64,000 bases of DNA from a virus (taxonomy: Duplodnaviria; Heunggongvirae; Uroviricota; Caudoviricetes), in the IMG/VR virus record IMGVR_UViG_3300044712_002452, positions 11,336 to 75,335 of that record, one strand, 5' to 3'. The translations under genes and the position numbers were made by a program. Of the stretch, positions 11,290-55,500 are shown one piece after another. The notes under the pieces were generated by a model. It saw only the letters and a program-made list of their open reading frames with translations, ran no database searches and had not been told where the DNA came from. Numbering within the stretch: the first letter of the stretch is position 1; each line of letters begins with the position of its first letter.

Positions 11290-11322
11290 GCCTGGGTGTG
11301 TCTACGCCCGGGCTTTTATTTT
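11290..11322 (+). terminator. Intrinsic terminator closing the tail-appendage operon
   Basis: GCCTGGGTGT-GTCT-ACGCCCGGGC stem (10 bp, 2 G-U pairs) followed by TTTTATTTT. Confidence 0.65.
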
Positions 11323-11530
11323 CGCTTATAATTTTTCTTATGTTAAGTAGGGTATGCAATTTGTTGCCCATAGATGGACTCTTCCAACCCTGAAATCCGC
11401 TGATTTTCCGTGTAAACCCACTCACCTACCCACCTAAATACCCACTATCCAGATTGAAGAATGGTAATATCTGGTATGGATAGATATAGGGCCGGTGCTA
11501 ACTTTTTCGTTATCAAAGCGTTGCTGACGG

Positions 11531-11672
11531 TTCAGGCAACAAATTGCATACGTTCAGGCGACAGATTGCAGATGTTCAAGCCACTGATTGCAGATTTTGG
11601 GGCAACAAAATGCAGATGTTCGCGCAACGGATTGCAGAACGTTTTACATTTACGGGCAACAAATTGCAGATG
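11531..11672 (+). repeat. Iteron array of a plasmid replication origin: six 22-bp direct repeats, consensus TTCAGGCAACA(A/G)ATTGCAGATG
   Basis: Five head-to-tail 22-bp units start at 11531, 11553, 11575, 11597 and 11619. A sixth starts at 11651 (offset 32 bp). The array sits immediately upstream of the Rep gene. Confidence 0.85.
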
Positions 11673-11675
11673 GTT

Positions 11676-12596
11676 ATGGAAATTCAGAAGATTAACCGGC
11701 AGCCCAATCGCATTACCATGGCTCAGCAAAACTACTCTTTGCTGCAGAAGCGAATATTATACCTGGTTATCAATCAGATGCGCTTAGGGGGTGAACAACG
11801 CAATTTATTTGAAGAAACTGAGTACACCTTTCCCATTAAATTATTGGGGGATCGGAACTATCTGCGGGTCCGAGAAGCCGCAATTAGTTTACTGAAAATT
11901 CCAATCGTGTTGGTAGACAATGTTACCGCACGAGAACTGGATGCATTCGCTCCGATCGCGCGCGTCAACGTATCTAAGGCGGGCATGCTGACCATTAAAT
12001 TCTCGCAAGATGGTATGCGGCATTTTCAAGAAATATCCGAAGGATACACGTCTTATGGCTTGGATTACGCTATGAGTTTAGAAAGCACCTTTTCGCAACG
12101 GATGTATGAAATGCTATCGAGCTGGCGCAATAAAGGCGCTTGGCGTAATGTATCGCTGGATGCTTTGAAGAAACGGTTGTCATTGGAAGGCAAATACCCC
12201 AAATTCAGTTCGTTTGAACAAAGGGTACTCTTACGTGCGCAGGAAGAACTCTATGAAAAAACCGATATCTCTTTTGATTATACGGTGCAAACGGAAGGCC
12301 GCAAAGTAGTCGCGCTGCAATTTATGATCAAAAGCAAACCAACCGGTCTTCATTTGGATGCGCAACAAGAAGCCCAGGCTGTGGCTGAAGTGCCGATGGG
12401 TACCATGATGGCCTATCTAATCGAAGCGTTCAAGCGGTATCGGTTTTCCATAGATGAAGAAAAGAAGATCCTTAACGATCCGGCGCTCCGGGCGCGCTTT
12501 GTGGATGTGCACACTCGTATCAGCCATGGCGCGGTACAGATACAACGGGAAGATGGAGATCCCACTCCCCTAGCCCGGGTGCACGTTTTTGGTTAA
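11676..12596 (+). CDS. Plasmid replication initiator protein (Rep_3 / RepB-like winged-helix)
   Basis: 'RQPNRITMAQQNYSLLQKRIL', 'YAMSLESTFSQRMYEML..W', 'SLDALKKRL...YPKFSSFEQRVLLRAQEEL', 'EGRKVVALQF'. True start is probably the ATG at 11670 or 11676, after the iterons. Confidence 0.88.
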   Translation: MEIQKINRQPNRITMAQQNYSLLQKRILYLVINQMRLGGEQRNLFEETEYTFPIKLLGDRNYLRVREAAISLLKIPIVLVDNVTARELDAFAPIARVNVSKAGMLTIKFSQDGMRHFQEISEGYTSYGLDYAMSLESTFSQRMYEMLSSWRNKGAWRNVSLDALKKRLSLEGKYPKFSSFEQRVLLRAQEELYEKTDISFDYTVQTEGRKVVALQFMIKSKPTGLHLDAQQEAQAVAEVPMGTMMAYLIEAFKRYRFSIDEEKKILNDPALRARFVDVHTRISHGAVQIQREDGDPTPLARVHVFG

Positions 12597-12953
12597 TTGC
12601 TGTAGCTTTTGTTTGAGTAAATCAATGTGCTCTTGTTGTTGAGCGATGATCCGCCGCAGCATGCTGGTTTCTTCCAGGCTTTGATTGGGATGCGCAATTT
12701 GTACGCGCATATCCTGACCACTCTTTCGGGCCAAATACAAGGCTTCTACTTCGGCTTCCAAACAAGACTCCATTTCCATCGGCGAGATTTTGAAATAATC
12801 GGCGATTTTGATAATAGTGGCCGGCGAAGGCGTAACGGCATTTCGTTCGTAGGTATCAACCATGCCCCGGCTTAAACCGAAGAGTTCACCAAATTCTTTT
12901 TGGGTAAATTTTTGGGTGTTGCGCAATCGACGCAAATTGTTTCCGAGTGCCAT
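12570..12953 (-). CDS. XRE-family HTH transcriptional regulator (repressor-like)
   Basis: 'LGNNLRRLRNTQKFTQKEFGELFGLSRGMVDTYERNAVTPS..TIIKIADYF' HTH_3 signature and a C-terminal coiled coil. No S24 peptidase domain. Confidence 0.85.
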   Translation of the reverse strand: MALGNNLRRLRNTQKFTQKEFGELFGLSRGMVDTYERNAVTPSPATIIKIADYFKISPMEMESCLEAEVEALYLARKSGQDMRVQIAHPNQSLEETSMLRRIIAQQQEHIDLLKQKLQQLTKNVHPG

Positions 12954-13023
12954 ACTTGTAATTTTAGGTGTTTGCTATTTTTTAATAGCACGGCCGGTGC
13001 GTGCTACAAATTCATTGTATTTG

Positions 13024-13440
13024 CTATTTTTTTGACGACCGAGCTTTTTCCATGAGTTTAACATGCTCCGGCCTTTCTTCAATGGTGCCTCCCCCTCTAT
13101 TTTCTTTTTTGAATAACATTTCCAGGGCTTCTTCAACCAAAGAGCGCTGCGATACCGACTCCCCTTTTAAGGATCGCTGGTACACTAAATTCCGAAGCGT
13201 ATTGATATAATCGGTTCGGATATACACCGTGTACTTCTCCCCTTTTTCCGATACTTGAACGATTTCAGGTTCGACGGGTTTTACTGCTTTCGGTATATCG
13301 GGTATTACTGTATTCGGTATTTCGGGTTCATCTGTTTTAAAGGGAACGGTATTGCGGAGTAGCAATCCACGGATACCTCCCTCCGATTCTTTATCAGTGG
13401 GTGTTTGGGGGATGTTTATTTTTTTGGTCATGGGATGCAA
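13024..13440 (-). CDS. Small partition (centromere-binding) protein, ribbon-helix-helix-like
   Basis: Directly downstream of parA. Disordered N-terminus followed by 'KYTVYIRTDYINTLRNL...SQRSLVEEALEMLF' (beta-alpha-alpha pattern). Confidence 0.6.
   Translation of the reverse strand: MHPMTKKINIPQTPTDKESEGGIRGLLLRNTVPFKTDEPEIPNTVIPDIPKAVKPVEPEIVQVSEKGEKYTVYIRTDYINTLRNLVYQRSLKGESVSQRSLVEEALEMLFKKENRGGGTIEERPEHVKLMEKARSSKK
13288..13326. repeat. Cluster of short (C/G)GGTAT(A/T)-like repeats, parS/centromere candidate 1
   Basis: GTAT cores at 13293, 13302, 13310 and 13317. TTTCGGTATATC (13288) is identical to 14271. Confidence 0.45.
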
Positions 13441-13442
13441 GT

Positions 13443-14252
13443 TTAGGGTAAAGAAATATTGATTCGTACTGCTACTTCAGCCAGCAAATTTTGGTAGTCT
13501 TCGGCTGCGTTGCTGTTGGGGGCATGTTTGAATATACTTTCGCCGGCCGTGGCCGCTTCGGTTAAAGCGACTCCTTCGCGGATCATCGTGTTTAATACTT
13601 GGACCTCGGTGCCGGCAAATTTATCCCGTACACTTTGTTCAATGCTGCGGTTGATAGTCTTGTGTTTACTGTACTGATTGAAGATGATCCCCCCTACCCT
13701 TAAATGCGGATTCAAGCCGCCGGTTTTAATGGCGGTGTACATTTCTAAAATCCGGTCTACCCCGATCATAGCGTAATACTGTGATTGCAACGGTATAAAA
13801 AACCAATCCGCCGCTACCAGCGCGTTGATGGTTACCAATCCCAAAGACGGTGGACAGTCCAGCAAAATCAAATCGTATTGATTTACAAAAGGTGCCAGGA
13901 TTTTTTTCAGTAAGCTTTCCCGCATGAGCGCGGCGGAGATCTCAATTTCAATGGCCGCCATATCCAAGCTTGAAGGAATCAAGGATAGATCCCGGTACTT
14001 GTCGGGTTTTACGGCATACCTGATAGCTTGTTCACCGGTATTACGGAATGCCGTATATATGGTATTCGGAATAACGGATTCATTTTGAAGCAGGGTTTGG
14101 GTCAGGTTGCATTGGGAGTCTAAATCTACGCATAGTACCCGCAGACCTTTTTGGGCAAACCCAAAAGCTAAATTGGCAACCGTAGTGGTTTTTCCGACGC
14201 CCCCTTTGTGGTTGGCCATAGCCACAATGATCGCTTTGTTCGTTTGTTTCAT
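13443..14252 (-). CDS. parA: ParA/Soj-family partition ATPase
   Basis: Deviant Walker A 'NHKGGVGKTTT', 'VDLDSQCNLT', 'YDLILLDCPPSLG..TINALVAAD'. Confidence 0.95.
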   Translation of the reverse strand: MKQTNKAIIVAMANHKGGVGKTTTVANLAFGFAQKGLRVLCVDLDSQCNLTQTLLQNESVIPNTIYTAFRNTGEQAIRYAVKPDKYRDLSLIPSSLDMAAIEIEISAALMRESLLKKILAPFVNQYDLILLDCPPSLGLVTINALVAADWFFIPLQSQYYAMIGVDRILEMYTAIKTGGLNPHLRVGGIIFNQYSKHKTINRSIEQSVRDKFAGTEVQVLNTMIREGVALTEAATAGESIFKHAPNSNAAEDYQNLLAEVAVRINISLP

Positions 14253-14257
14253 GTTTT

Positions 14258-14290
14258 AGGTATTTACTGTTTTCGGTATATCCGGTATAC
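14258..14290. repeat. GGTAT repeat cluster at the parA 5' end, parS/operator candidate 2
   Basis: AGGTATT-ACTGTTTT-CGGTATA-TCCGGTATA directly upstream of the parA start codon. Confidence 0.45.
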
Positions 14291-14418
14291 AGGTGTGCCT
14301 GCATACAGATAATATTTAATGCAATATAAAAGGAATTATGGTACACCCAAAATATTTAAAACGGGTGAGCAGATAGTCGGTAAAACAGATGAGTAAGCAT
14401 ACCTTATAGCTTGAAAAT

Positions 14419-14456
14419 CAGTATTAAGGTATTCGGTATAACAGTATAACGGTAAC
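14419..14456. repeat. GGTAT repeat cluster, parS candidate 3
   Basis: GTAT/GTAA cores at 14421, 14429, 14436, 14444 and 14452 (7-8 bp period). GTATTCGGTAT is identical to 13310-13320. Confidence 0.5.
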
Positions 14457-14502
14457 ACCATTTATACGTTAAACGTGTATTATGTAATGCGGTATATTTT
14501 CG

Positions 14503-14534
14503 TTTGTTCGAAAAGGTTGATTATCTTATATTTG
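14503..14534 (+). promoter_or_regulatory. Bacteroidota housekeeping-type promoter (-33 TTTG / -7 TAnnTTTG)
   Basis: TTTG at 14503-14506, a 20-nt spacer, TATATTTG at 14527-14534 and an ATG at 14553. Confidence 0.65.
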
Positions 14535-14552
14535 AACCATCCGATCCACTCT

Positions 14553-15908
14553 ATGAAAGATTTTAAGAAGGTCTATGAAGCTATGATTAAGCGTTCTCCA
14601 AAGCGAGACGAAATTATAGCGGCTGAATGCGGCATGACGCTTGATCGGTTTCGAGGCACCCGAGAAATCATACGGCATGTTGAAAAAGAATTTAACATTC
14701 AAAGCCGAAACATCCTCAGATCTTTTGTTGAAAAAAAACTTTCAGAAGGTTCTGAGGATTTTTCATTATCCAAAACTGAAGTTCAAGCTGTCGAAAATAT
14801 TGCCAAGTCTGCGGTTTATCACAAGCTTACCGGCCGGGTGGTATCGGATGATACCAATTTAGATAAAGGGGAGCGGAATTTAACACTGGTAACCAATCGG
14901 GAGCCTTTGAATCCTGAAGAGATAATCAAACTCCTTAAAATAGATACAACCAAGTGGTATCTGGCCGGTTACTGGAATAAACAACAAAGCATCGGTTGGC
15001 GGGTGTCGGCCAATGTGGTTCGGATCAAAGAGAAGCCTGTCGATAAATTGGCTCAAGTTATTCAAAGCTGGAAGCCCCGGCCGATTTCCAAAATTACCGC
15101 CCTAGGAAACGCGGTTGATTCTGAACCTTGCATGGTCGTTATTTCCATGCAGGATCTGCATTTTGGAAAGCGCAACAATGACTCCATTCGAAAAGATTAT
15201 CTCTCAGCATTAGAATACCTAATCACCCAAAGCGTTCGGGTGGCCGCCGTTGAAGAAGTGTTGTTGGTGTTGGGCGGTGACCTTTTGAATATGGACACTT
15301 TTGATGGTACGACCACTAAAGGTACCCCTGTCGAAAACGGCTTGCTGGCCACTGAAACTTATCGGGTAGCCCTGGATACCAAGATTGAAGCAATCACTTT
15401 ATGCGCTCAACTGGTTCCTAAAGTTCGGGTGGTGTACATTCCCGGTAACCACGACCGCTTATCCAGTTTTCACCTGATGGATGCCGTCACCCGAATTTTT
15501 CAAAAGAATCCCCAAATCCAATTTGACAACGCTTACCAAGAGCGCAAAGCTATTTTATACGGAAAGAATTTTATTGGGCTTGAGCACGGAGATGTGTCTA
15601 TCAAACAATCACCCATGGTGTTTGCTACCGAGTTTTCTAAAGCCTGGGGAACATCTGTATACCGGACTTTGTACACCGGCCACTTACACAAAAATAAAAA
15701 AGTTGAATATGTTGTTGAAGATGAAACAAACGGGCTCGACGTTAAAATCATGCCGTCGCTTTGTTGCGAAGACTACTATCATAAACACAACAAGTGGACG
15801 GGTAACAAGCGACGCGGGATTGCCGAAGTCCACAAGAAATCAGGGGGAATCCTTGCCCAGTTCCACTTCTTTGCCGACAGTCAAAAAAAAGGAAAAACGC
15901 GAAAATAA
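14553..15908 (+). CDS. Calcineurin-like metallophosphoesterase with N-terminal extension
   Basis: QDLHFG, GGDLLNMD, PGNHD, EHGD and TGHLH motifs. The start is moved to the ATG at 14553, downstream of the promoter. Confidence 0.85.
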   Translation: MKDFKKVYEAMIKRSPKRDEIIAAECGMTLDRFRGTREIIRHVEKEFNIQSRNILRSFVEKKLSEGSEDFSLSKTEVQAVENIAKSAVYHKLTGRVVSDDTNLDKGERNLTLVTNREPLNPEEIIKLLKIDTTKWYLAGYWNKQQSIGWRVSANVVRIKEKPVDKLAQVIQSWKPRPISKITALGNAVDSEPCMVVISMQDLHFGKRNNDSIRKDYLSALEYLITQSVRVAAVEEVLLVLGGDLLNMDTFDGTTTKGTPVENGLLATETYRVALDTKIEAITLCAQLVPKVRVVYIPGNHDRLSSFHLMDAVTRIFQKNPQIQFDNAYQERKAILYGKNFIGLEHGDVSIKQSPMVFATEFSKAWGTSVYRTLYTGHLHKNKKVEYVVEDETNGLDVKIMPSLCCEDYYHKHNKWTGNKRRGIAEVHKKSGGILAQFHFFADSQKKGKTRK

Positions 15909-16281
15909 ATTCAAACTCGAAATCCCTATCTACAATACAATCTTGTATGTACAAATAGGAGGGAACGAAAAAGATATTCGGGAGTATATCGCTTCCGAAG
16001 GTGGGATAGGATTTAACCCTTCCGAAATTAATGTAGAAACCCTGGCCATTACCTATGAATTAAGCGATTGCCGGTATTTGATTTGGTTTCGGGATTATCG
16101 TAATACACCCAAATTTATAGGGGTTCTGGCGCATGAAGTGTATCACTTTGTACATTTTATGATGCGCAACATAGGTCAAGAACCCAGTGAAGATTCAGAA
16201 GAAAGTTATGCTTATCTGGTCGGCTACACGGTCGAGAATATATCTATGCGCTTGCAGGGGAAAGCGGAAAAAAAATCGTAA
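15871..16281 (+). CDS. Small phage HExxH (zincin-like) protein
   Basis: 'VLAHEVYH...SEESYAYLVGY'. No ATG near the conserved part; an in-frame TTG at 15871 is assumed as the start, so the start is uncertain. Confidence 0.55.
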   Translation: MPTVKKKEKRENKFKLEIPIYNTILYVQIGGNEKDIREYIASEGGIGFNPSEINVETLAITYELSDCRYLIWFRDYRNTPKFIGVLAHEVYHFVHFMMRNIGQEPSEDSEESYAYLVGYTVENISMRLQGKAEKKS

Positions 16282-16286
16282 ATTCT
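16274..16286 (+). promoter_or_regulatory. TCGTA-type promoter-like motif (AATCGTAAATTCT)
   Basis: Variant of the 6112/6743 motif, upstream of the ATG at 16301. Confidence 0.35.
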
Positions 16287-16300
16287 TAATAGCTCTTTGT

Positions 16301-16909
16301 ATGAAAACCACACAAAACCTGGAAAGCTTTAAAAAGCCGGACTTAAAAGCACCCCGGTATCGCAAGAAAGTTCACAACCCCATCAACAAATTGTTGTTTG
16401 CTTCCCTGCGATATCAGCATGAATGTCTGCGGGAAATGAGTGACGATGAAATGCGAGCTCATCTGAGATACTATTTACAGATGATTCGCACTGAAATCTT
16501 GCAGCATCCTGATGGATCCGAATTGAACAATCTGTTGGGCATCATTTTTATCGGTAGTACCGCCAGTCCGCGGAAGCGTTATTTTGGCGTAGACTGTGTA
16601 AAGTCGATTGCTTTGGGTAAAAAAGTGCATCATAAAAATTGGGAAACCGATGGCTTGACGTGCAATATATTTTACACCAATTTTTACCAGCGATTCACGT
16701 TTCGCTTTCGGGAACTCTGGCGCTTTGAAGCAGACAAAAAGTTAAAAAAAGGGGGATCGGATGCGTTTAAAGAAGACCATCAACGGTTTGTACAAGTCGA
16801 GCCCTGGATGACAATATCCAAAATGTTCAATTTATATACCAAGCGACAGCGATTCAAAGCTGAGGTTGCCAGTCAGTTGCGTAACCTTCCTGATGAATTC
16901 GCGCTCTAA
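16301..16909 (+). CDS. crAss-like IHF/HU-like conserved protein
   Basis: 'FKKPDLKAPRYRKK' N-terminus and 'IFYTN...YRF..ELWRF' resemble the IHF-like gene found beside tail genes in crAss-like phages. Recalled from memory, not searched. Confidence 0.5.
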   Translation: MKTTQNLESFKKPDLKAPRYRKKVHNPINKLLFASLRYQHECLREMSDDEMRAHLRYYLQMIRTEILQHPDGSELNNLLGIIFIGSTASPRKRYFGVDCVKSIALGKKVHHKNWETDGLTCNIFYTNFYQRFTFRFRELWRFEADKKLKKGGSDAFKEDHQRFVQVEPWMTISKMFNLYTKRQRFKAEVASQLRNLPDEFAL

Positions 16910-16920
16910 AAATTCGTGAT

Positions 16921-17568
16921 ATGCAGACTATCGGTTATAATGTATCGATGTTAAGGCGGGAAATCAAAGCGATGAGCGTAGACGTACAGCTCACCGATCG
17001 GTATTTGTATAACCTATTGATGAAACACGCCGATTGGTTGATTAAGCGGGAAGATGATAAATGGCGGGTGCTCAATCAAGAAGATGTGCTGCAGCCTTGG
17101 GAAGTAGGAATGGAAGAAGTATTGCTGGTAGCGGGATTTAAAAAAACCGTTTATCGGTCTACGGCCACTATTCCCCCTTTATTTGAAGGTACCAACGGAT
17201 TGTTGATTCGGGGTGTTACTACGCTGGACGGTTCTGAAGAAATTGTTCTTGTTAGCCGTAGTCGCTACGAAAACATTCAAAAGCAAAGTTCCCGTAAGTA
17301 CAATAAAACCCGATATGCTTGGATAGAAAAAGGGTATCTGTATACCTTGGATTCAGAACTGGAAGGATTGCGGGTAGAAGGCTTATTTAAGCAAACCGTT
17401 TCTTCAAACGGTTGTGAAGATGTACAATGCATTCCTGCACAAAAGCAAGGGTTTTATGTGCCGGAATTTTTGATGGCTGAAATGTTTTCTCACGCAGTTC
17501 AAGATTTGCGCAATATGTTCGGTATTCCAACGGATACCCAAATGGATCTTAAAAATGTGGCTCAATAA
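16921..17568 (+). CDS. Tail ring / head-tail adaptor protein
   Basis: Size and position before the muzzle gene. 'YNKTRYAWIEKGYLY...EGLRVEGLF' motif. Confidence 0.55.
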   Translation: MQTIGYNVSMLRREIKAMSVDVQLTDRYLYNLLMKHADWLIKREDDKWRVLNQEDVLQPWEVGMEEVLLVAGFKKTVYRSTATIPPLFEGTNGLLIRGVTTLDGSEEIVLVSRSRYENIQKQSSRKYNKTRYAWIEKGYLYTLDSELEGLRVEGLFKQTVSSNGCEDVQCIPAQKQGFYVPEFLMAEMFSHAVQDLRNMFGIPTDTQMDLKNVAQ

Positions 17569-17573
17569 AACCT

Positions 17574-18419
17574 ATGAAAGCACCTTTATCCTATAAAACG
17601 GTAGACGCTTTGCTGGCCGATGTCAAAGATGATATGCATCGGATTTACCAGGAAGGATTTATTCAACCTTCCCAGTTGATTCGGGAAGTCATGTATATCA
17701 ACAAAGAATTGGGGTTAAAGCTACATCGACGTCGCCGGGCGGTTGTCGATATCTGCAACGGTAAAATTACCTTACCTGAAGATTTTCATTACTTGATATG
17801 TGCGCTGGCCATCAGCGATAGCTTGGTTATTGAAAGCAGCTTGGATTTACCCATTCAAGCCTATAGTGAAGATGTGCTTTTACCGGTCGGTGCTGCTCCG
17901 CCGGAAGACGCAGAACTGCGGGTCAGTGAGTGTGGTAGGCAAATACAAGTGATTGAACATAGATCTTATCAAAAAATTTGTTATCGACAGGTTCAACCCA
18001 TCAAAGTGAAAATGAGCAATGCTTGTGATCCCGGATGCTTTAATCTGCGCGTTCAATCGGATGTCGTACTGGTCGTAGGTAAAAACCATGGATCGATCAC
18101 CGGTATTCAAAACGGAACCCTTTATATCGAATACTTGGGTTCATTGGTAGATGCCGATGGAAACGTATTGGTGCCCGATGATGAAATCTTGTTGCGCTAT
18201 TACGAAAATGCGTTGAAAGTCAAAATTTTGGAAAACATGGTTTACGCCAAAGAGCCGGTAGGGGAGATGTTGAACTTGGCTATACCTAACCTGAGAATGG
18301 CGCGCAACAATGCCATCAACCGGGTGAATATGCCGGAGTATTCAGAAATCAAAGCGGTCATTCAAGCGCATCGTAAAGCTATGCACAATCGTTATTACAA
18401 AATCTTCATTCCAGCTTAA
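17574..18419 (+). CDS. Tail ring / tubular protein
   Basis: 'KITLPEDFHYL', 'IEYLGSLVDADGNVLVPD...YYENALK' motifs and position next to the muzzle gene. Confidence 0.55.
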   Translation: MKAPLSYKTVDALLADVKDDMHRIYQEGFIQPSQLIREVMYINKELGLKLHRRRRAVVDICNGKITLPEDFHYLICALAISDSLVIESSLDLPIQAYSEDVLLPVGAAPPEDAELRVSECGRQIQVIEHRSYQKICYRQVQPIKVKMSNACDPGCFNLRVQSDVVLVVGKNHGSITGIQNGTLYIEYLGSLVDADGNVLVPDDEILLRYYENALKVKILENMVYAKEPVGEMLNLAIPNLRMARNNAINRVNMPEYSEIKAVIQAHRKAMHNRYYKIFIPA

Positions 18420-18427
18420 ATTATTCT

Positions 18428-23164: not shown

Positions 23165-23181
23165 GCACACTTCTTAATTAT

Positions 23182-24867: not shown

Positions 24868-24900
24868 GCGGAATTTAAAGTTTATCGCAGGCAAGCGTAA

Positions 24901-24914
24901 TTTTTCGTAAATTA
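24901..24914 (+). promoter_or_regulatory. TCGTA-type promoter-like motif (TTTTTCGTAAATTA)
   Basis: Intergenic, 7 nt upstream of the ATG at 24922. Confidence 0.45.
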
Positions 24915-24921
24915 AAGATGT

Positions 24922-27081: not shown

Positions 27082-27112
27082 AATTCCCTGTTTTTATAGG
27101 TATATAATATTT

Positions 27113-27149
27113 GTTTAGGATGTATATTTTATAGATATATATCCTAAAC
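27113..27149. other. AT-rich inverted repeat (15-bp arms, one G-U, 7-nt loop)
   Basis: GTTTAGGATGTATAT-TTTATAG-ATATATATCCTAAAC. Confidence 0.6.
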
Positions 27150-27182
27150 TTTATCTATTTAATCTACAAATGGCGTAGAAAT

Positions 27183-48300: not shown

Positions 48301-48584
48301 AAAACAAAGACGGTAAGGGTGGATACGCACAGTATCGGCTAAAACTGGAAGTGTTGTTTGTATTAAGTATGAAATCAAGCAGCATTTTGAACAGTGACAC
48401 TTTAATTGCTCGCCGTCAAATTAGCAATTTTATGAAAGACAAGAAAAACAAGTCCTGGTTAGAGGCAAAAGCCAAATCGCTGAATTTAACCGCTGAGCAA
48501 TATTTAGGAAAAGTAGAAAGCGAATTGGGTGATTTGCGTACTTTTTTGGACGTCAAAGCTTACGAACAAAAGTTGTTATGTTAA
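39387..48584 (+). CDS. Virion-packaged single-chain DNA-dependent RNA polymerase (crAss-like, two double-psi beta-barrel type)
   Basis: 'ADGQG' (D935), 'YRIPT' (R1392) and catalytic 'KSGSDYDIDK' (D1431/D1433/D1435; nt 43677-43691). 3065 aa, middle gene of three giant genes. Confidence 0.85.
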   Translation: MSVCKLVIDDMHLPLLMGKMEFFVIKAIENNTELMTMFQNKDSQLFSRLYGAAYEELLKKAEMYRQGIEANRAAIEPEPGEDVDLSERARIIEDNAAYQSYIDHDQAILSNLEDLIESYFPLFETYIKQTDLFGKVKVDDREVEDDSIRMSFEQTASDLNNLDDVSTLIQFLVRGLQKAVFQKEFAGTDEAFMYAEDEYGTTVNVDYAMFMRKMLNDLEGLKTSEDMMDKLKQLAISDFGYKMLLERIDAVAVTDSLKFDLLVALMQTASKAILPVYTVSTDGPTWTVYENSTGKEIQLTMLARENFARHGIIFKGEQLASQDENGRFYLDANSPFAQKKKIALSTIQDQIDFLAALGFPLAESTRKAILKSPELIGILPNSTNRNYSALSHILYSIDQRIQSGYTLFDPFVELQKSVRGGITQNQIINHVVKDINLVLTAETRYSDKYSAIRVVKNANQDAINTQQLYNNYTLIATAINQVDKYPTLQDLLEGEPALFYLDPRTTPSARNSVFLNTMFEMDPDSSTFGRRKRDRSTNLPVKLEVVNFNSLKVRSDENDKATDLNPIDKIAMDFNGFFRKGLKETPRPGDKSTVVAMKVSSYGHTDLDLQKQDYPLSLENRNDRKPFLNIMYGYFEDVMMHKYLHQRGFYAKWKNSDKHLENGFGMYDSILSFNPAIGDQLKAEIMAQLAAAQNQEQARDIIQAFWNKYETALGTLIENFFTQRAQKMLRIVELNRNPRIQYKDLFNTAHIRNELDSHFFDMEDPLEREAAMTFYLKNAFILNTEVFKLVHGDTFYFVDTHKRLSKDTATGHFTFMDEGLMGMLNNYDASGSKNSYGAYTNYGQILYWAELFERGDIDEETYERKIEESKIKPTFRSAVIQEVKFKSVYHQKMKDEIEALRENGQLSDEEYRVYKASLEAQIDNSYGDKGNKEADGQGVATLDFYRTMSLLTNTWSPKQEETYKKITEWNSLERKLKSRASYTDDSMTTLNADGQAALRLRDQIQFSREEMGYFPLRKFQYAGPTRHEQSVNGETVAVAVPIFDKFSLRPLLPSVFGVGDPTDQYLWERMMHHNISYVKFESATKVESPKVTDTLYLNFDAENPSVRNPVSVNYAGGFEVENGGFVTTHELFFDRFKEQVSIEEDPHGSVIFGSQARKLFMMNLLGVDESNPLYENLITQYRGLLDDLITLRRNEIIQNMGGRYDQATQTYSIVNPDTFAAFVRTEFEKKGADSTIMAALKLNDRGELVYGLDAVNQSKAIEKLILSIMNRQMVRYKMNGSMLTQMASTGTERVGGFNRKATEAAYEKYGTNGLRFYGLEKKANGRFTVRSAEVKISMNKNFSPLLNLEDPERPGVAVGTVERLNELLRAESAEALAFQQATESARRMIAYRIPTAGRNFLDHFVIKEFLPEEAGDVIILPSEIVIKSGSDYDIDKMFAFYPNLDYSGERIDTDYTSSDIYSVLAELQTLKDTRAEINESIEALKTDSVYQTALSEGSRLETLLAEYRNSRKLLYAQAEKLKSEGRVRSAAYEDLVEQIKLLDGRISATDESRRNYLETKYLKERGLSRRRSIRDIREQRFTNDKYDIYFEDETVTGSNSVAPTVKWNRVIFDVRKNQRLEPFTADGKKNGVYTRALNAYIAQYDFTYHNLIDDFYIPYALERSNNPAQLAYLIRKHEKNQDYAEVIEKAKARFESVTGFEPTANTLKIAAAQYPIAVENDKLVFTQNDSYYERKSKIRAKERYLKQLEQKAQNRLLDVVHETLALGENFLQTVTPSSDFHIDPIVDDLFQRLGILKPGEKRGKKHYNNTEALMEQENLEKMISLMRAKENLGIAAVYNAFNILLQDSQAMSNPEFLRKNKIGSFFTLDNPSKGLRYEKEAGYYVTEIAYGGLYDEKGVFKSEFYTEFINAFVDAANNDYAFAINLVKEFAPIAFYMKAQGLSSEKILYFINQPVMRTYVKHLRKHTALVNKTLAPVYLPRNHRPGLGDEESTPIVHLVLSESERQQNDYYREGDENRKYKMTDSARDLAIRDTLAEMNQYGEYLEFDWTKSISRGEFFNRLKGFGLLPLDLKNPRYNEKTKQWEYPELSPKSAASIKQLQQVFKEETLREGVLAETNGEPVLLSTLTAKMQNRQLLYLLEFMNQKKGSDNMTEIQQTMNFDTKTMASGYDVNARIQRYKDLRNNAVLSADTIEYLWSKSITSPLNNNEFVNALLEKIFPLMNHPTLNDELRFHLDSVVSEKLVFGDDQKERFARIFKADFAGYVLQNYVEKSPAAMAMFKSYYQTELGFNEYLKSLIENGTLMKQHREIQNDPQFYELAETFPILNQIFMDGGLTNTALFNFAIPNFSNNELEKKSLALQFYRLTELADNDLNPYHAKVRQYMRNLGLYDIFQSGKNYSTYTYIDMVPSDLINVLYDEAFRALQSEMAASPDQNVLENAVSDFARMFFKNNQNYLLKEEQYIAGSPVKDENKRGKWYHDSALFAGVQIQLPAYQMRRKRLAREELAMGSKNRRAIVEGVKTLTMRNYRLNAGMLYELQADPSDTNRAVVDLEYMGPIRYSDLQAMTPEQQDMYATQEGFGYEVLKPQLVGDLVIPVGISGSGQEVWIEQIRRATPNVKIQVVSLEAIAKKIDISDPVQKATEMIQLVNNAVSNALTVGEKVIVDATNLNEAYRDAIVKAVQAEFPQKKISYKLFEANPSKSRHRMQQAQKRTGVKPVSDAVLAQQLNLYQKFEARFKAEKWQDEDQLNQELRTQQQVGKPRPYEVMIEAIMKGETKSIKKIDFIDNNEPMHLYAVKLLRTGEYAYGKRFVLPSRLEYNGQTRENQFVSKDQKKANVATHLISFAPAPGEGERISASFGYAQAAKGQGVPVNTMAYGESQIPYDQDTVAMVTIRGKGAATEVEKKATEIEMLNVLLAGGTIVQDDKEGRQTDWNKTGEFEVMRAVVDRLARAYSMPTGEFFSKGLEYSEHQQNKDGKGGYAQYRLKLEVLFVLSMKSSSILNSDTLIARRQISNFMKDKKNKSWLEAKAKSLNLTAEQYLGKVESELGDLRTFLDVKAYEQKLLC

Positions 48585-48642
48585 TCTACAACTGGAAATA
48601 AATCGGTAATTTTAACACATAATCTTTAATAATCAGACCCTT

Positions 48643-51600
48643 ATGTTTTCTTGTCCTAATATATCCCATCCTTTATATATTCAAATGGTTGAAGAATTTG
48701 GCGAAACCGAAGCTTCACTGATCTACGCCAAAAACAACTATGCGATGCCTGAAACCATTCAGGAAGCGCAAGTCTTGATGCGAAAGGTTAGCACGGATTT
48801 TTTTCGGGAGCGTTTTGAGCAAGTGCCGATGAGTGAAATATTGAAAAGCAAAGAAGCGCTGCGTGATTTTTTGGTAGAATATGAGCTTATTGAAGCAGAG
48901 CCGCACATCAGTCACCCTAATCGTTATATGATAACACCTGCGGGTAAAGCTGAAATTTTGGATATTTTAAAGGGTCTTCAAGAGCGATATGGGTATCCGT
49001 TTTCAGTAATCGACGATACGTTTGTAGAATTGGATGCCGAGCGGATAACGGAAGTAAACGGAAAGCATGAAATGGTCAAAGCTATTCCTGATTTAACCGA
49101 TGATGAAATCATTCATGCCGTAGTAGAAGGGTGGGGGTTGAGCCCTTTGCAAAAAGAGAAACTGTTAACCAAGTTTTCAACGGAAGATTTGCGAAATTTG
49201 ATGATCGAGCGAATGAATCAAAATGCGTTGTTGCCGGCTGGCGCACCGTATGACTTTCGTTCTTATCGAGTAATGGTTGATTTGTTTTTGTCTATGGATC
49301 CGACTTTAAAAAAGTTGTTTCCTAAAGTACACGGCACTCCTACTTATCAGTATGAATTAAGTTTAAAAAAATACATTGTTGAAAAAAGAGCGCTAAATTC
49401 TGAAATCGACTACGATTTACTCACCCGTGATTCACTCGCTCAGATTTTAAGTATGGTGGGGCATCGATCCGAACAAGCCACTGCAGCAGAAATGGATGTT
49501 TTCACCGATTTTTTTATGGATGCTCATAAGCGACTGGCTCTGATTGACAATATGCATCTCTACGATGCCACCAATCGGGCGGTGATGAAAGAAAGTCGTC
49601 AACAAGAAAACGCTTTACCTCAAAAACCGCAATCCCGCAAACTCTATTACGCTACGGCACCCGGTCGGAAAAAAGGAAAAACTCTGGCCGAAGAATTTGA
49701 AGCTCAAAAGCCAAATGATACCCAGCGTGAAATCATCGCCAAGTTGGTTGAAATGGGTACCCGTAATCCTTTTGATGAAGATGCTCACCAGCACTTTTTT
49801 GTTCCGCCGGGTGGCGGCACCCCGATTCCCGTACCAAGTACTACCGGTAAATTGGGAAGCGATTTCGATAGTTCTCTGATGCGCACCGATATCATCGAAA
49901 GCTTTGCCAAAGCGCAAGCTGAAGGCGTGTTCACCACAGATGTGAACAATATGGATGCTGAACAAGGGTTGCTGTATTTGGTCGAACAATGTGCCAAAGA
50001 CCAAGGGGCATTTTCACTCGAAGATTTACGGATCTTTCTTGACCCCTACGGAGATGATTACAAAGTACTCTTTAATGTCATTGCCGATAACGTCGGCATG
50101 CAAATAAAAACGCTTTTTGGTACGGCTGTACACGCCCTGATTGAAGACTTCATCAACGGTAAACCGGTGGATTTAGAGCAGTTTCGGGATAATCCAATGG
50201 TCAATATCGAAATGCTGCATGCCGCACTTTACGGTACTGATGTAAACAACCCCGGTGTATTTGACGTGCTCAAAAAGCTACGATCTGAAGGGTATGTGTT
50301 TATGCCTGAAGTAAAACTCTCCAATGTGAACATGGGGGGTATCATTGACGTAGTAGCCATATCGCCGGCCGGTGTGGTCCGCATATTGGACTTTAAAACC
50401 AAGAACATACGGGAGAAGTACAAAAGCAAGAATAAATCGCTCACCGAAGAATTTTTGGAAGTAATCGAACTGAACTCTTCCAAAGAAGTAACGGGTGACC
50501 CGGCTATTGTACTCCAAAACGTGCTGGGCTTCAAACGGAACCTGGTAAAAAAATGGAGTCAGCAGCTCAGTTTGTACAAAAAGATTCTAATGGAAGCCGG
50601 TGTAACGGTAGAAGATCTGGTGATCATCGGTTTACCTTATATGGTCGAAGATGAAACCGGCGCCATGGTGGATATGAAAATGGTGCAAGTAGAAGTACCT
50701 TTTGAAAAAAACATCGGAAACAACTTGTTTCAGTCTATCGATCCCAGTTTTGACGCCAATCATGTCGTAAAAAACAAACCCGCTGAAGACGCGCTGGAAA
50801 AATCCTTGCGGGCTCTCGGAGAGTCCAAAGTCTACGAAATGTTGATCCGAAGCTTTGCCGTGATCGATCATATGTACAGCTACTACGGTTTTAGCAAAGA
50901 CACCAAAGAGATATACGATGCCCTGAAACGGGGTGTAACCGATCAGAACGATTTTAAAAATCTGCGGAACTATGTCAAGCGGGCCATTGAAGACGAACAG
51001 GGTATTCAATCCTATACCCATACGGTTCGTGACTTTATGCACATGATTGTAGAAAGTGCTGAAATCGTAAACATAGTGGTCGATCAGTTCAATAAAGCCA
51101 AAGCTGAAATCGCCGATACGCCGCTGGCTATGAAAGCCAAACTCAACAAGCTCCATAAACTCAACGAATTTCTGAAGGGTTATAACCGGATGTTTGAAGA
51201 GATATCATCTATTGAGAGCATCACCGATTCGGATAACCCGGTACACAAACAAATCGCCACTATTCAGGGGGTAATCAAAAACGTACAGGACTCTTATATC
51301 CAGGATGTAACGCCGATTGTGGCGGGGATTCTGGCCGGTCAGAACGGCGGTGAGCTTTTGCTCAATATGAAACGGCAGTACGATGAGCGCATTAAAAGTG
51401 CACAGGACCGCGGGCTTTATGAAGAAGCAGCCAAACTCAAAAAGGAACGTGATGAACTGGGTGAACTGGCCACTATTCAGCAAACCCTGCAGGGAAAACG
51501 CGGGGATTCGTCATATTTTTATTCTCAATGGGTGAGTACGCTTTCCAATCCGGACGTAGTGATCGCTTCGTTTGCCAAGAACATGCAAAGCGCTATGAAC

Positions 51601-54600
51601 AAAGTCCGTATCCAAAACCTGGGTTTACGGGATGATTTGGGTAAACGATTCATGCAAAGGCGAACGCTGATGGGAAGCAGTTGGAATAAGCAAAAATTCA
51701 ACGAAGGCTTAACCAAACGAGTAAAAAAATACAATAGTCGGATCGATAAAGAAACTGAAGAACTCTGGCTCTTAACCGAGTATTCAGAAGAACTGTATTA
51801 CGACTATGAAAAACTGAAGCGTAAAGTAATTGATGCGCGCAAAGATATCCGGGAAAACGGTAAAGATGCCGCTCGGGAACTGGCGCTGGAGCAAGCGACC
51901 GCCGCCGTCTTGAATTTTGAAAAAGAGTATTTCCAGTCCGAATTCACCGATCACTATTACGAGTTGACCGGCATGCTCGATACCATGGTTACCTATGAAG
52001 GTACCACCCAATCGATTCGTAAAATTCAGGATGATCTGCGTACACAGGCCCGCGTACTGCGTAAAGCCATCGGGAATGAAGACTTCCGAGAAGGAAACAT
52101 GAACCATACCGAATTCAAAGCTTATCGGGATATTCAGGAAAAGCTAAAGAATTTGGGCAGTCGTTTTGATGTCAACGGTCGGGAAAAGACCGGCGATGCT
52201 CTTAAAATCTATGAAGTACTCAAAGAATATCGGGAAAAGACCAAAGATATCTATAACCGGGAAGTGTATGAAGGACTCTTCCAGCGCCGGGAAAACGACG
52301 TAATTGCTAAATACGGAGAAGGCTCTGCAGAGCATGATCGTTTCTTGGAAGAAGAAACCGTGGTAACGCTGAGTGACGAATACTACCAGCGTATCAGCGA
52401 AATCTATGCGCGCATGGATGAAATTGCCGGCAATACCGCCGGATATACCGTCAGTCCGATTCGGGAGCAAATCAATGAACTCAAACGGGCGTACCGGGAT
52501 GATGAAAACGTGGTAAATGGTTCGTGGATGCAGGACCGTGAAGATATTTTGCAGAAGATTAAAGACTTGGAAGAACAGGAAAAAGTCTTTTTTGAAAGTA
52601 CCGACCGGGTGTTTTTCAATACCCGCAACTTAACTACGGAAGAAGCCACGGATCTAAATGCGCTCTACGCTAAAGGGGTGTCCAATATGGATGCCGATGA
52701 ATACGATCGCTATGAGTACTTAAAAGGATTGTCGGCTGAACGAGCCGATAATGAAGAACTGGCGGAATACCAGGCTTTACGCAAAGAGCTACGGAAGCTG
52801 CGGGAAAAACGGAAAACATCGCATTATCACAAGGCTTATTACAGCGAACTGGAAGCATTTTCGATTGCCAAAGGTTGTACGATGAACGAAGCGGAAACCA
52901 AGTTTGTTGCCGAGTGGTATCAGACGCCTTGGTTTCAGCGGAACCATATTTTCGAAGAGAAAAAGGTAATGATCAAAGGGGCAAAGAAAGGGGATCCTCA
53001 GTTTAAAATGGAGATGGTACCGCGCCCGATCAGCGTGTGGACAGAAATCGTGCCAGCCACCGATGAACTGAAAAAGAAGTACATGACCCGTAAACCCAAT
53101 GGTACTTACAACCGTTCGGAACTCAAAGAAAGCTATGTGGATGCCGCAGGGGTAACGCATAAACTCAAAAACACGGACAACCGGGATATTCTCAATCGAT
53201 TCAAACCCCGGCCGGCGGCAGAATACCAAGCTAAATACGGGCGGGCGCACAAGTATCTGGATCCGGAATATGCCCGTTTGAAGCAAGGGTATCTCAGTAA
53301 TGCGCTTTCCGCACAGGATAAACAGAACTACGAAGATTTGCTGTATCTCACCAAATTAATGACGGATCAGCAAGAAGGTCTGGAAATGACCAACCGTTTA
53401 GGATATGCGGTGCCTTATATCCGTCGGGATTTTGGGGATCGATTGGCTCAAGACGGGGCAGGTAAAATTGTCAGCAGCGTCGGTAATACTATCCGGGATA
53501 AGTTTACCAAAACCGAAAATGATATCAATGCGGGTACTGTAGCCACTCCAAAAACACCCGATGAACTGCAAAGGGAAGCGGATGATGCCCTTAACAACGA
53601 ATTGGATATAGATGGTATTGGTACACTGGCCAACGATGAATACAAAGCCATACCGGTTCAGTTTACTACCAAAGGCGATTTATCACAAGCTTCGTATGAC
53701 GTATGGGGTGGGATCCTGCATTACGCCGCTTCTATCAACAAGAAAAAAGGATTGGAAGGGGAGCTGGCCCTGGCCAATGGGTTACAAGATATTTTGGAAG
53801 CCCATCCGGTAAAAGGGGAGAAGGGTAACCGTAAAATCAATGAAGTACTGGAAAAGTACACCCCGGATGCAGCTAAAGACAGTCTGGAAAAGATTAAACT
53901 GCACGTAGCCGGGGCTACGCAGCGTCAGCAGGCGATCTTGAACTACACCCGAGCCATGTTCTACAATGAAGAAACCAACGCCGGCACGGACATCTTAGGG
54001 GTCAATACGGGCAAAACGGTTTCTACGATGATGCGGGCGATTGCTTTTAGAACACTGGCCGGTGCGCCGACAACCTGGATGGCGAACGCTATTTCCGGAA
54101 ACATTCAGTCCATTATTGAATCTGTATCGGGTAAGTATTACAATTTCAATGAATACTTAGGTGCCAAAAACACGCTGTACAATCCGATGGGGGCTTCTGA
54201 GTACGGTTCACCGATTCGGGATTTGATGGCCGACGTCAATGCTTTGTACACTAAAGACGGTCCGACGCTCGGAAACAAAAGTTTTTGGGGTCAACTACTC
54301 GACGTTTTTGATGCCCTGCAGGGTCAGACCCAGGATGAATTTGGTAATCCTACGGATTGGTCGAAGCGTAAAAACATCCTGGGTCACGTTATGTATGGGG
54401 GTAAAAACTTCACCGAATGGGAAATGCAGGTGACCAGTTTTATCGCGTACATGAAAAATCAAAAGGTGATCAACGGGGAATTGATGAATCGGGAAACCTA
54501 TATCCGTCAAAATGTACCGTTGATTCCCGGCGAGTCTATGAACGAGCTGATTGCCCGGAAAATGGAAGCAGCTAAAAAGTTCAACGAAGAAAAAGTGACT

Positions 54601-55500
54601 TTGCTGGATATCTTGGAAAAAGATGCCACCGGAAAACTAAATGTGAAGCCGGCGTATGCCACCGTGTTTCAGATTGGAGATGAGAAGTTTGACGAGATGG
54701 TAAACCAAATCAATGCGCTGCAGAAAAAAATCAACGGTTCCTTCCATGAAAAGGATAAATCACAGATGGAGCGTACGGCTTTTGGTACCATGATGACTTT
54801 CTTTAGAAAGTACGTGATTCCTTTTGCTGTAAACCGATATGCTACCCGGCACAATGATTGGGAAGCCATGCGGGTAGAAGAAGGGTTTTATATGACTACG
54901 TTCAGATTGCTGAAAGAAGACTTGGTGGCGGCCAATTACAATTTAGTAAAGAACTGGAACCGGTATTCGCAGGAAGAACGTCAAGCTATCAAACAAACCC
55001 TTTTGGAAGTAGGCATTGTACTGGCCATGCTGGGCGCTGCAACGCTGCTTTTTGGATATGATGACGATGATGAAGACCGGTTTAAGAAGCTGGAAGAAAA
55101 GCCTTATTTGGCGCAGGCGGCGTTGTATGTGTTATTAAAAGCCAAGTCTGAAACGGAAGGATTTATACCCTGGCCGTCTATGGGATTGAATGAAATGTGG
55201 CGAATTGTGAGTACCCCGACGCTGGTGATCAACGATGTCAAGCAATACATTTACTTAACCGATCTGACCTTGCGAAGCGGGTTTTACTACCTGGGTGGCA
55301 ATAGCGACAATTTGGGGCACTTCTTTGGAGTAGAAGAAAAAGGGGTGTTTTATCAATCGGATGTAAGCGATAGCGGTTTAAAAGACAAAGATGATTTAAA
55401 GTGGTTTGCAGAAGCCGCCGGCATGATGGGTTATACGGGTAAGACCTTGCATCCGATCGATGCGATTAAAGGGTATGAGTACGCCCAGCGGATCAAGTAA
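48643..55500 (+). CDS. Giant virion-ejected protein with PD-(D/E)xK nuclease domain
   Basis: 2285 aa. 'PEVKL...GIIDVV...ILDFKTK...SQQLSLYKKIL' RecB/Cas4-like motifs and a hydrophobic C-terminal segment 'VGIVLAMLGAATLLFG'. Confidence 0.75.
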   Translation: MFSCPNISHPLYIQMVEEFGETEASLIYAKNNYAMPETIQEAQVLMRKVSTDFFRERFEQVPMSEILKSKEALRDFLVEYELIEAEPHISHPNRYMITPAGKAEILDILKGLQERYGYPFSVIDDTFVELDAERITEVNGKHEMVKAIPDLTDDEIIHAVVEGWGLSPLQKEKLLTKFSTEDLRNLMIERMNQNALLPAGAPYDFRSYRVMVDLFLSMDPTLKKLFPKVHGTPTYQYELSLKKYIVEKRALNSEIDYDLLTRDSLAQILSMVGHRSEQATAAEMDVFTDFFMDAHKRLALIDNMHLYDATNRAVMKESRQQENALPQKPQSRKLYYATAPGRKKGKTLAEEFEAQKPNDTQREIIAKLVEMGTRNPFDEDAHQHFFVPPGGGTPIPVPSTTGKLGSDFDSSLMRTDIIESFAKAQAEGVFTTDVNNMDAEQGLLYLVEQCAKDQGAFSLEDLRIFLDPYGDDYKVLFNVIADNVGMQIKTLFGTAVHALIEDFINGKPVDLEQFRDNPMVNIEMLHAALYGTDVNNPGVFDVLKKLRSEGYVFMPEVKLSNVNMGGIIDVVAISPAGVVRILDFKTKNIREKYKSKNKSLTEEFLEVIELNSSKEVTGDPAIVLQNVLGFKRNLVKKWSQQLSLYKKILMEAGVTVEDLVIIGLPYMVEDETGAMVDMKMVQVEVPFEKNIGNNLFQSIDPSFDANHVVKNKPAEDALEKSLRALGESKVYEMLIRSFAVIDHMYSYYGFSKDTKEIYDALKRGVTDQNDFKNLRNYVKRAIEDEQGIQSYTHTVRDFMHMIVESAEIVNIVVDQFNKAKAEIADTPLAMKAKLNKLHKLNEFLKGYNRMFEEISSIESITDSDNPVHKQIATIQGVIKNVQDSYIQDVTPIVAGILAGQNGGELLLNMKRQYDERIKSAQDRGLYEEAAKLKKERDELGELATIQQTLQGKRGDSSYFYSQWVSTLSNPDVVIASFAKNMQSAMNKVRIQNLGLRDDLGKRFMQRRTLMGSSWNKQKFNEGLTKRVKKYNSRIDKETEELWLLTEYSEELYYDYEKLKRKVIDARKDIRENGKDAARELALEQATAAVLNFEKEYFQSEFTDHYYELTGMLDTMVTYEGTTQSIRKIQDDLRTQARVLRKAIGNEDFREGNMNHTEFKAYRDIQEKLKNLGSRFDVNGREKTGDALKIYEVLKEYREKTKDIYNREVYEGLFQRRENDVIAKYGEGSAEHDRFLEEETVVTLSDEYYQRISEIYARMDEIAGNTAGYTVSPIREQINELKRAYRDDENVVNGSWMQDREDILQKIKDLEEQEKVFFESTDRVFFNTRNLTTEEATDLNALYAKGVSNMDADEYDRYEYLKGLSAERADNEELAEYQALRKELRKLREKRKTSHYHKAYYSELEAFSIAKGCTMNEAETKFVAEWYQTPWFQRNHIFEEKKVMIKGAKKGDPQFKMEMVPRPISVWTEIVPATDELKKKYMTRKPNGTYNRSELKESYVDAAGVTHKLKNTDNRDILNRFKPRPAAEYQAKYGRAHKYLDPEYARLKQGYLSNALSAQDKQNYEDLLYLTKLMTDQQEGLEMTNRLGYAVPYIRRDFGDRLAQDGAGKIVSSVGNTIRDKFTKTENDINAGTVATPKTPDELQREADDALNNELDIDGIGTLANDEYKAIPVQFTTKGDLSQASYDVWGGILHYAASINKKKGLEGELALANGLQDILEAHPVKGEKGNRKINEVLEKYTPDAAKDSLEKIKLHVAGATQRQQAILNYTRAMFYNEETNAGTDILGVNTGKTVSTMMRAIAFRTLAGAPTTWMANAISGNIQSIIESVSGKYYNFNEYLGAKNTLYNPMGASEYGSPIRDLMADVNALYTKDGPTLGNKSFWGQLLDVFDALQGQTQDEFGNPTDWSKRKNILGHVMYGGKNFTEWEMQVTSFIAYMKNQKVINGELMNRETYIRQNVPLIPGESMNELIARKMEAAKKFNEEKVTLLDILEKDATGKLNVKPAYATVFQIGDEKFDEMVNQINALQKKINGSFHEKDKSQMERTAFGTMMTFFRKYVIPFAVNRYATRHNDWEAMRVEEGFYMTTFRLLKEDLVAANYNLVKNWNRYSQEERQAIKQTLLEVGIVLAMLGAATLLFGYDDDDEDRFKKLEEKPYLAQAALYVLLKAKSETEGFIPWPSMGLNEMWRIVSTPTLVINDVKQYIYLTDLTLRSGFYYLGGNSDNLGHFFGVEEKGVFYQSDVSDSGLKDKDDLKWFAEAAGMMGYTGKTLHPIDAIKGYEYAQRIK

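Follow-up and report, generated by a model that had tools for sequence, protein, structure and literature searches.

A plasmid-type replication and partition cassette in a crAss-like phage genome from rhizosphere soil: a candidate phage-plasmid

Introduction

The persistence of crAss-like phages over years without integrases has yet to be explained. Here we address it with a stretch of 64,000 nucleotides (the window) that makes up bases 11336-75335 of one 139,335-bp IMG/VR virus record, IMGVR_UViG_3300044712_002452, from a plant-root (rhizosphere) soil metagenome. Inside the tail module of this virus, between two late operons, lies a cassette of about 3.2 kb (window 11265-14474) that encodes a replication initiator (Rep) preceded by iterons, a ParA ATPase with a small partner, and an XRE-family regulator. 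An earlier note on this DNA had read it as a crAss-like phage that carries a virion RNA polymerase (RNAP) together with a complete iteron plasmid replicon, and had proposed that it can be maintained as a low-copy extrachromosomal prophage. This raises the question of whether the cassette is a real maintenance module, and whether the phage that carries it lives as a plasmid. We are highly confident that the cassette is a genuine, probably functional maintenance module, and we favor, with considerably more reserve, the reading that the phage lives as a plasmid or stable carrier (a phage-plasmid).

Results

The gene at 11670-12596 on the plus strand encodes a 308-amino-acid (aa) initiator of the Rep_3 family with the two domains WH1 and WH2. 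We found matches to both Pfam families, Rep3_N (E 3.8e-16, 60.2 bits) and Rep3_C (E 2.2e-17, 63.5 bits), each above the Pfam cut-off, and in PDB to RepE and pi (E ~1e-5). The Rep_3-like initiator of the earlier note was thus recovered with a corrected start, since the gene likely begins with the ATG at 11670 and not with the TTG at 11544, whose frame crosses the iterons. When closed replicons were searched, Rep best matched the initiator of the Runella slithyformis plasmid pRUNSL05 (31% identity over the full length, E 5e-39), followed by initiators of Spirosoma, Fibrella, Fulvitalea and Bernardetia plasmids, all of them from Cytophagales. The rep gene of pRUNSL05 has 21-bp iterons upstream and is adjoined by a pair made up of ParA and a hypothetical gene. 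Among 1.8 billion representative proteins the best match was 41% identical, and it sits on a Bacteroidota plasmid-like contig in the order Rep-ParA-124-aa gene. The best match in a phage database was gp37 of Burkholderia phage KS14, annotated as a replication initiation protein (26% identity, E 4e-9). Scans of viral contigs with Rep and ParA singly found no close relatives, and word-indexed protein searches with Rep and with the small partner each retrieved only the query itself.

Directly upstream of rep we found six direct 22-bp iterons on the plus strand (11530-11671). Five are contiguous (11530-11639) and the sixth (11650-11671) follows after a 10-bp gap, which gives a spacing of 22/22/22/22/32 bp and places its last bases over the rep ATG. 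An inverted copy lies on the minus strand at 11352-11376 and is complementary to the direct iterons at 17/17 and 20/22 positions. At up to 2 mismatches the 17-mer iteron core occurs only at this site in the 139-kb genome, and three loose matches with 3 mismatches were found elsewhere in it. The iterons seen earlier are therefore present, and the array has the form of a Rep_3 origin, with direct repeats of 17-22 bp that adjoin rep and are phased with the DNA helix. The roughly 150 bp between the inverted and direct copies contain two DnaA-box-like 9-mers with 2 mismatches each, which is about the chance level. On the other side of the inverted copy, a 34-bp stretch of 82% AT (11313-11346) holds the highest-AT 30-mers of 11265-11700 and is a candidate DNA-unwinding element of oriV. 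It abuts a terminator-like hairpin on the plus strand (11290-11313), with a 10-pair stem that includes 7 GC pairs and then a T-rich tail, which closes the operon of the upstream FN3-domain tail genes.

Repeats also lie upstream of the 41%-identical Rep homologue. Their core, ATAACAAAATGCAT, is nearly that of the phage iterons, GCAACAAATTGCAG, so that a AACAAAATGCA-type core is common to the phage and to the closest homologue of its initiator. Since the core tracks the relatedness of Rep, initiator and repeat covary, and this gives good grounds, as judged from the two sequences, to take the phage iterons as true Rep sites.

The genes for ParA, its small partner and XRE form a three-gene operon on the minus strand that is convergent with rep. 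ParA (13443-14252, 269 aa) is a ParA/Soj-type partition ATPase (AAA_31 E 3e-51) with a deviant Walker A motif, KGGVGKTT, at residues 16-23 and no N-terminal helix-turn-helix (HTH) extension. It matched ParA and Soj in PDB with E values of 8e-42 to 1e-37 and is 43.6% identical to a Hymenobacter plasmid ParA. The partner (13024-13431, 135 aa) has no Pfam family. On a Hymenobacter volaticus plasmid, the closest plasmid ParA is followed by a gene whose product is homologous to the C-terminal half of the partner (E 2e-10). In a low-confidence AlphaFold2 (AF2) single-sequence model of the partner (low predicted local distance difference test, pLDDT) its N-terminal half is disordered and its C-terminal half is strand-helix-helix, with strands 55-62 and 65-72 paired as a hairpin and helices at 73-89 and 95-110. 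Leads from the Atlas were ribbon-helix-helix (RHH), Arc, CopG and CB_ParB_C. The partner is a candidate RHH centromere-binding protein, with the predicted shape usual for type Ib partition.

The third gene of the operon encodes an XRE-family HTH regulator (12570-12953, 127 aa; HTH_3 E 9e-11) with a coiled-coil-like C-terminal tail, and its 3' end overlaps the 3' end of rep by 27 nt. It matched repressor and regulator families of PHROG. Its best plasmid matches were on Hymenobacter plasmids, where one homologue adjoins an ImmA/IrrE peptidase. All three proteins that the earlier note had placed beside the initiator are present. Between the partner gene and the XRE gene are two overlapping palindromes with 7-bp arms each (12973-13006), which may be an XRE operator or a hairpin.

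Upstream of parA, a 222-bp intergenic region (14253-14474) contains TTCGGTAT(A)-type short repeats. Of the 19 copies of the TTCGGTAT octamer in the genome 4 fall within one 1.6-kb stretch here, an enrichment of about 20-fold. A 26-nt block of the region (14263-14288) recurs inside the partner gene at 13280-13305 with 92% identity, and a second tandem copy follows at 13304-13329. In addition, a 44-nt block (14397-14440) recurs at 77% inside parA (14014-14057). We infer that the repeat blocks upstream of parA are candidate centromere or operator sites. The tandem copies within the partner gene (13280-13329) encode a Pro/Ile-rich linker, and the related blocks inside the par coding sequences (13280-13329 and 14014-14083) may be extra binding sites or traces of recombination. 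Downstream of the cassette and ahead of the next phage gene is a Bacteroidota-type -7 element (14527-14534).

A replicon of plasmid type within a phage could also be an artefact in which an assembler had joined a phage to a plasmid. We found no specific support for such a chimera beyond the prior risk that attends metagenome assembly. The first 127 bases of the record are repeated exactly at its end, and IMG/VR classes it as having direct terminal repeats, with a CheckV completeness of 100%. A second assembly, a Logan contig of 139,238 bp from a different run, has an identical gene order. Both lengths, 139,335 and 139,238 bp, equal 139,208 bp plus a k-mer-sized overlap (127 and 30, respectively). 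The genome, a unit of 139,208 bp, thus appears to close on itself and may be circular, or linear with circular permutation. Since the 'terminal repeat' is a k-mer-sized assembler overlap, it is uninformative on the physical ends.

We compared Logan assembled contigs from two rhizosphere metagenome runs (two samples from two studies), which gave one contig each, of 73.8 kb at a depth of 10.7 and of 139.2 kb at a depth of 17.5. Both contigs span window 8000-20000, that is 12 kb over the cassette and both of its junctions, with 0 differences and even depths. No contig that joins the flanks in a cassette-less form was found in the two runs. The record may itself come from one or the other of these samples, and the agreement of the runs hence speaks for the robustness of the assembly and not for two independent populations. 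The GC content and codon usage of the cassette are also continuous with the flanks. With two assemblers and two runs yielding the same 139.2-kb circle, and with both junctions bridged by the 73.8-kb and 139.2-kb contigs, we regard a phage/plasmid chimera as extremely unlikely. For the assembled genome, chromosomal integration was rejected as well, since the genome closes on itself, the circle carries no host flanks and no integrase was found in the genome.

The rest of the genome is that of a phage. It has the crAss-like layout of two blocks, one of plus-strand structural genes that wraps around the ends of the record and one of lower GC on the minus strand. The capsid matched the Crass_capsid profile with 86 bits, above the Pfam cut-off. 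Downstream of the cassette on the plus strand are crAss tail ring protein 2 (16921-17568; PF25702, 35.9 bits, above the cut-off), a weak match to tail ring protein 1 (17574-18419; PF24228, 19.9 bits, below the cut-off of 27) and the crAss muzzle protein (18428-23164; PF25731 E 1.7e-23, 83 bits, above the cut-off). The position of ring protein 1 is kept in 27/29 related loci, and the remaining two end before reaching it. The genome has three giant genes of 2969, 3065 and 2285 codons, and all of its large virion genes are open.

The 3065-aa protein (39387-48584, plus strand) is a giant virion-cargo or RNAP-related protein with a DYDID motif at residue 1431, and its residues 1000-2000 match giant proteins in 93 crAss-like records, including those of a Cellulophaga phage and crAssphage. 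The C-terminal third of the 2285-aa protein (48643-55500, plus strand) resembles the 'RNA-polymerase subunit' of crAss001 type, with residues 1585-2228 matching at tblastn E 1e-19 to 2e-20. A phmmer search of the giant proteins against PDB sequences gave no RNAP match and did not reach the solved phi14:2 enzyme, and PHROGs matched neither the upstream tail genes nor two of the three giants. By the matches to crAss-like records the claim of a virion RNAP holds for the 3065-aa and 2285-aa genes taken together. The ring, muzzle and giant RNAP genes that the earlier note had seen on the same continuous sequence as the cassette are there, and all of the named profiles but ring protein 1 pass their cut-offs. 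As further features of the giants, the 3065-aa protein carries a kinase-like AAA_33 (polynucleotide-kinase-like) domain toward its C-terminus at residues 2593-2737 (Pfam E 1e-10, phrog_505), and a separate polynucleotide-kinase gene lies at 57939-59030. Residues 491-590 of the 2285-aa protein gave a weak PD-(D/E)XK nuclease match (E 5e-4, below the cut-off).

The minus-strand block encodes a phage DNA polymerase (phrog_1252, E 4e-129), a primase, a DnaB-like helicase, a Sak4-like annealing protein, a PD-(D/E)XK nuclease and an SNF2 helicase. With polymerase, primase and DnaB helicase thus supplied by the phage itself, Rep and the iterons make up a second replicon. Outside the window, at genome 95002-96042 on the minus strand, the replication block encodes a 346-aa protein in which a DnaA C-terminal HTH scored 31.7 bits, slightly over the cut-off. 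This protein is a candidate binder of the lytic origin.

This replication block bears on whether the cassette is instead an accessory of the lytic cycle, in which Rep and the iterons would serve as an early theta origin on the host replisome after injection and ParA would position genomes, with no lysogeny-like state. Some phages do use Rep-like initiators in lytic replication, and the lytic origin of this genome was not identified. However, relatives with the same type of replisome and the same gene order do without the cassette, the replication block has the candidate origin binder just described, and the ParA/RHH pair and copy-limiting iterons are features of low-copy maintenance and not of burst replication. 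We consider a purely lytic role quite improbable.

A second module of plasmid type lies in the early block. It is a PRTRC (ParB-related/ThiF-related) cluster at window 59072-62731 on the minus strand, with a ThiF match of E 8e-55, above the NCBIfam cut-off, and it also includes PRTRC proteins B, C and E. The genome as a whole contains no ParB_N domain. None of the 12 most complete relatives has ThiF, and 367 plasmid records carry homologues. By its homologues the cluster appears to be a second module of plasmid or integrative and conjugative element (ICE) type that is unique to this phage. Such clusters are typical of plasmids and ICEs, and one might accordingly suppose that the element is mainly a plasmid that has kept crAss-like particle genes, as a defective or domesticated phage or a source of transfer-agent-like particles. 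The plasmid backbone amounts to only about 3 kb, however, in a genome that is crAss-like in its overall layout, has a phage replisome along with capsid, ring and muzzle genes, keeps intact genes as long as 3065 codons and is rated by CheckV as 100% complete as a virus. This makes a mainly plasmid nature very improbable.

To place the cassette among related phages we used two sets of records. The first set consists of 29 related loci that were retrieved with the downstream neighbour of the cassette (37-47% identity). Gene order from this neighbour through the gene after it to Ring2, Ring1 and muzzle is conserved in them. Rep, XRE, the partner and ParA are all missing within 10 kb, and their full records gave no match to Rep3_N or ParA. 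The second set was taken from a capsid scan of IMG/VR, which returned more than 599 contigs with a related capsid, the best 80 being 66-69% identical. The phage thus appears, by its capsid, to belong to a very large environmental crAss-like clade with no close (>70%) capsid relative on record. Of the 80 closest capsid relatives 40 had records of at least 20 kb, and neither Rep3_N nor ParA was found in these 40, six of which are at least 90% complete (111-131 kb). Overall the module is carried by 0/69 related crAss-like records, 7 of them at least 90% complete, and therefore the cassette is a lineage-specific capture. Two large gut records labelled 'Bacteriophage sp.' that bear ParA (159 kb and 75 kb) had no crAss capsid match and were set aside; the control genomes gave no match for this family either.

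The nearest kin of Rep, ParA, the partner and XRE are on plasmids of Cytophagales-type Bacteroidota, from which the cassette appears to have been captured. This in turn suggests a Cytophagales-like member of the Bacteroidota as the likely host. In a capsid scan of prokaryote genomes, capsids of the clade (60-76% identity) were seen in metagenome-assembled genomes (MAGs) labelled Fluviibacter, Clostridium, Campylobacteraceae, Rickettsiales, Pseudomonadales, Micavibrio and Chitinophagaceae, among them near-complete phage contigs of 114-120 kb. These MAG matches are almost certainly binning contamination and give no clue to the host.

The absence of the cassette from all 69 relatives is also what would be seen if it were a recently captured passenger in a permissive spot of the tail module, intact but with no role in the life cycle of a functionally virulent phage. 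Its location in the variable neighbourhood of the tail fibres, the lack of a phage-type promoter motif or late leader inside it and the failure to find a lytic repressor network would fit such a passenger. Against this, all four genes and the iteron array are intact, and the cassette is insulated by the upstream terminator and the downstream host-type -7 element. Its sequence is identical in the two samples, and 3.2 kb of useless DNA in a head-full-limited genome would be expected to vanish quickly. We therefore hold the passenger to be unlikely, although of the alternatives it is the one to be taken most seriously.

Discussion

We infer the replication, partition, repression and lifestyle of this element from its sequence. 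An ancestor of the phage would have taken up the cassette from Cytophagales-type plasmids. Rep monomers would occupy the six phased 22-bp iterons and melt the AT-rich DNA next to them, so as to bring in the host replisome for theta replication at low copy number, and the last iteron over the rep start codon together with the inverted copy could provide autoregulation and handcuffing. ParA and its RHH-like partner, acting on the short-repeat sites around parA, would segregate the copies. XRE would control the cassette and possibly phage genes, and the phage polymerase, primase and helicase would serve lytic replication. As a net result the 139-kb genome would persist as a circular low-copy plasmid, in a phage-plasmid or stable carrier state and with no integration.

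Several points weigh against this reading. We found no lytic-repressor or operator network in the genome that ties the cassette to phage promoters, and neither ImmA nor a Bro-N/Bro-type antirepressor was found in the genome. The XRE protein of the cassette is the only significant XRE HTH in the genome. A genome-wide search with the AT-rich palindrome at 12973-12990, the first of the two beside XRE, retrieved no further copy. Phage phi14:2 relies on its injected virion RNAP for early transcription and on host RNAP for the remaining genes (bioRxiv 10.1101/2020.03.07.982082), and early transcription of this type by an injected enzyme leaves the induction of a resident plasmid copy unexplained. 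The capsid scan of prokaryote genomes found the phage clade in MAG contigs only, and in no isolate. Finally, the cassette is confined to one lineage and could be a recent, transient capture. Its relative synonymous codon usage (RSCU) correlates with that of the late genes at 0.71, against 0.79 +/- 0.06 for control subsets, and since the codon usage of the cassette cannot be separated from that of the late genes its acquisition is undatable.

What stands of the low-copy extrachromosomal prophage is the genetic capacity. The replicon and partition module, its plasmid ancestry, the lack of an integrase, the separate lytic replisome and the closed genome together indicate that the capacity for plasmid-type maintenance is present, as far as sequence can tell. 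The lifestyle itself, which the earlier note had also proposed, is plausible, and neither a repressor network nor a host isolate was found to support it.

By analogy with phi14:2, a virion RNAP would be diluted out in dividing cells, and a resident copy may thus be silent by default. From this one may speculate that the capture of a single host-plasmid backbone, ori-rep-parAB with one XRE gene, could be enough to make a temperate phage-plasmid out of a virulent crAss-like phage at a single stroke and without a classical immunity region. We think this rather improbable. If it were true, induction would need a route by which the polymerase gene is expressed from host RNAP.

The cassette shares its main features with the Rep_3 theta replicons of Cytophagales, such as pRUNSL05, and with the model replicons of F (RepE), R6K (pi) and pPS10 (RepA). 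These features are an initiator of WH1 and WH2, tandem 21-22-bp iterons directly upstream of rep, and a ParA and small-partner pair adjoining. It differs from these plasmid replicons in that the phage Rep is at most 41% identical to any known Rep, in that the replicon lies inside a 139-kb phage, and in that the par operon runs toward rep from the opposite strand, with XRE as its last gene. The partition genes are most like those of type Ib systems (TP228 ParF-ParG and pSM19035 delta-omega), which likewise have a short Soj-like ParA without an N-terminal HTH, a small partner whose N-terminus is disordered and whose C-terminus is RHH-like (both predicted here), and arrays of short repeats near the parA promoter. 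In contrast to type Ib systems, the phage partner has no sequence similarity to ParG or omega, its RHH fold and centromere are predicted, and copies of the repeats also lie inside both par genes.

Among known phage-plasmids, P1, SSU5, N15 and KS14 similarly combine a lytic replication system with a separate plasmid replicon and partition, and do not integrate. The virion described here is different, being crAss-like with a muzzle, cargo proteins and a virion RNAP, and the likely host is of the Bacteroidota. Moreover, unlike in those phages, no C1/CI-type immunity region, antirepressor or addiction module was identified.

The earlier note had called plasmid-like maintenance an unusual lifestyle for the crAss group, and this is weaker than stated. 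In 2021 the prototypic crAssphage, Carjivirus communis, was flagged as a singleton among phage-plasmids (PMC7969092), and in 2024 culture work led to the proposal that it is a phage-plasmid, for which its two RepL genes and a toxin-antitoxin pair were cited (PMC10983915). The latter paper mentions ParA only for P1. Plasmid-like persistence has also been suggested for epsilon crAss-like phages (PMC11054128). The phage described here and C. communis are both of the crAss group, lack an integrase, carry plasmid-derived replication genes and are proposed to persist extrachromosomally. However, C. communis has RepL and a toxin-antitoxin pair where this phage has a Rep_3/iteron origin and ParA/RHH partition, and this phage is environmental, from the rhizosphere, and only distantly related. 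In a full-text literature search for Crassvirales, ParA and plasmid replication in combination, the 2024 paper (PMC10983915) was the sole match, and no published crAss-like phage with a Rep_3/iteron origin and a ParA pair came up in this search.

The phage-plasmid idea is therefore not new for the crAss group, and the value of this genome is its clarity and testability. The proposal for crAssphage rests on divergent RepL, and the genome described here is a much less ambiguous genetic case, with a canonical iteron/Rep_3 origin and a ParA pair of clear plasmid ancestry in a complete crAss-like genome. The 3.2-kb cassette is a small and directly testable minireplicon, and if the replicon works, vectors for poorly tractable Bacteroidota from soil could make good use of it. 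For the biology of the group, it suggests that crAss-like phages exchange backbone modules with the plasmids of their hosts, and it indicates the Cytophagales as a likely host group.

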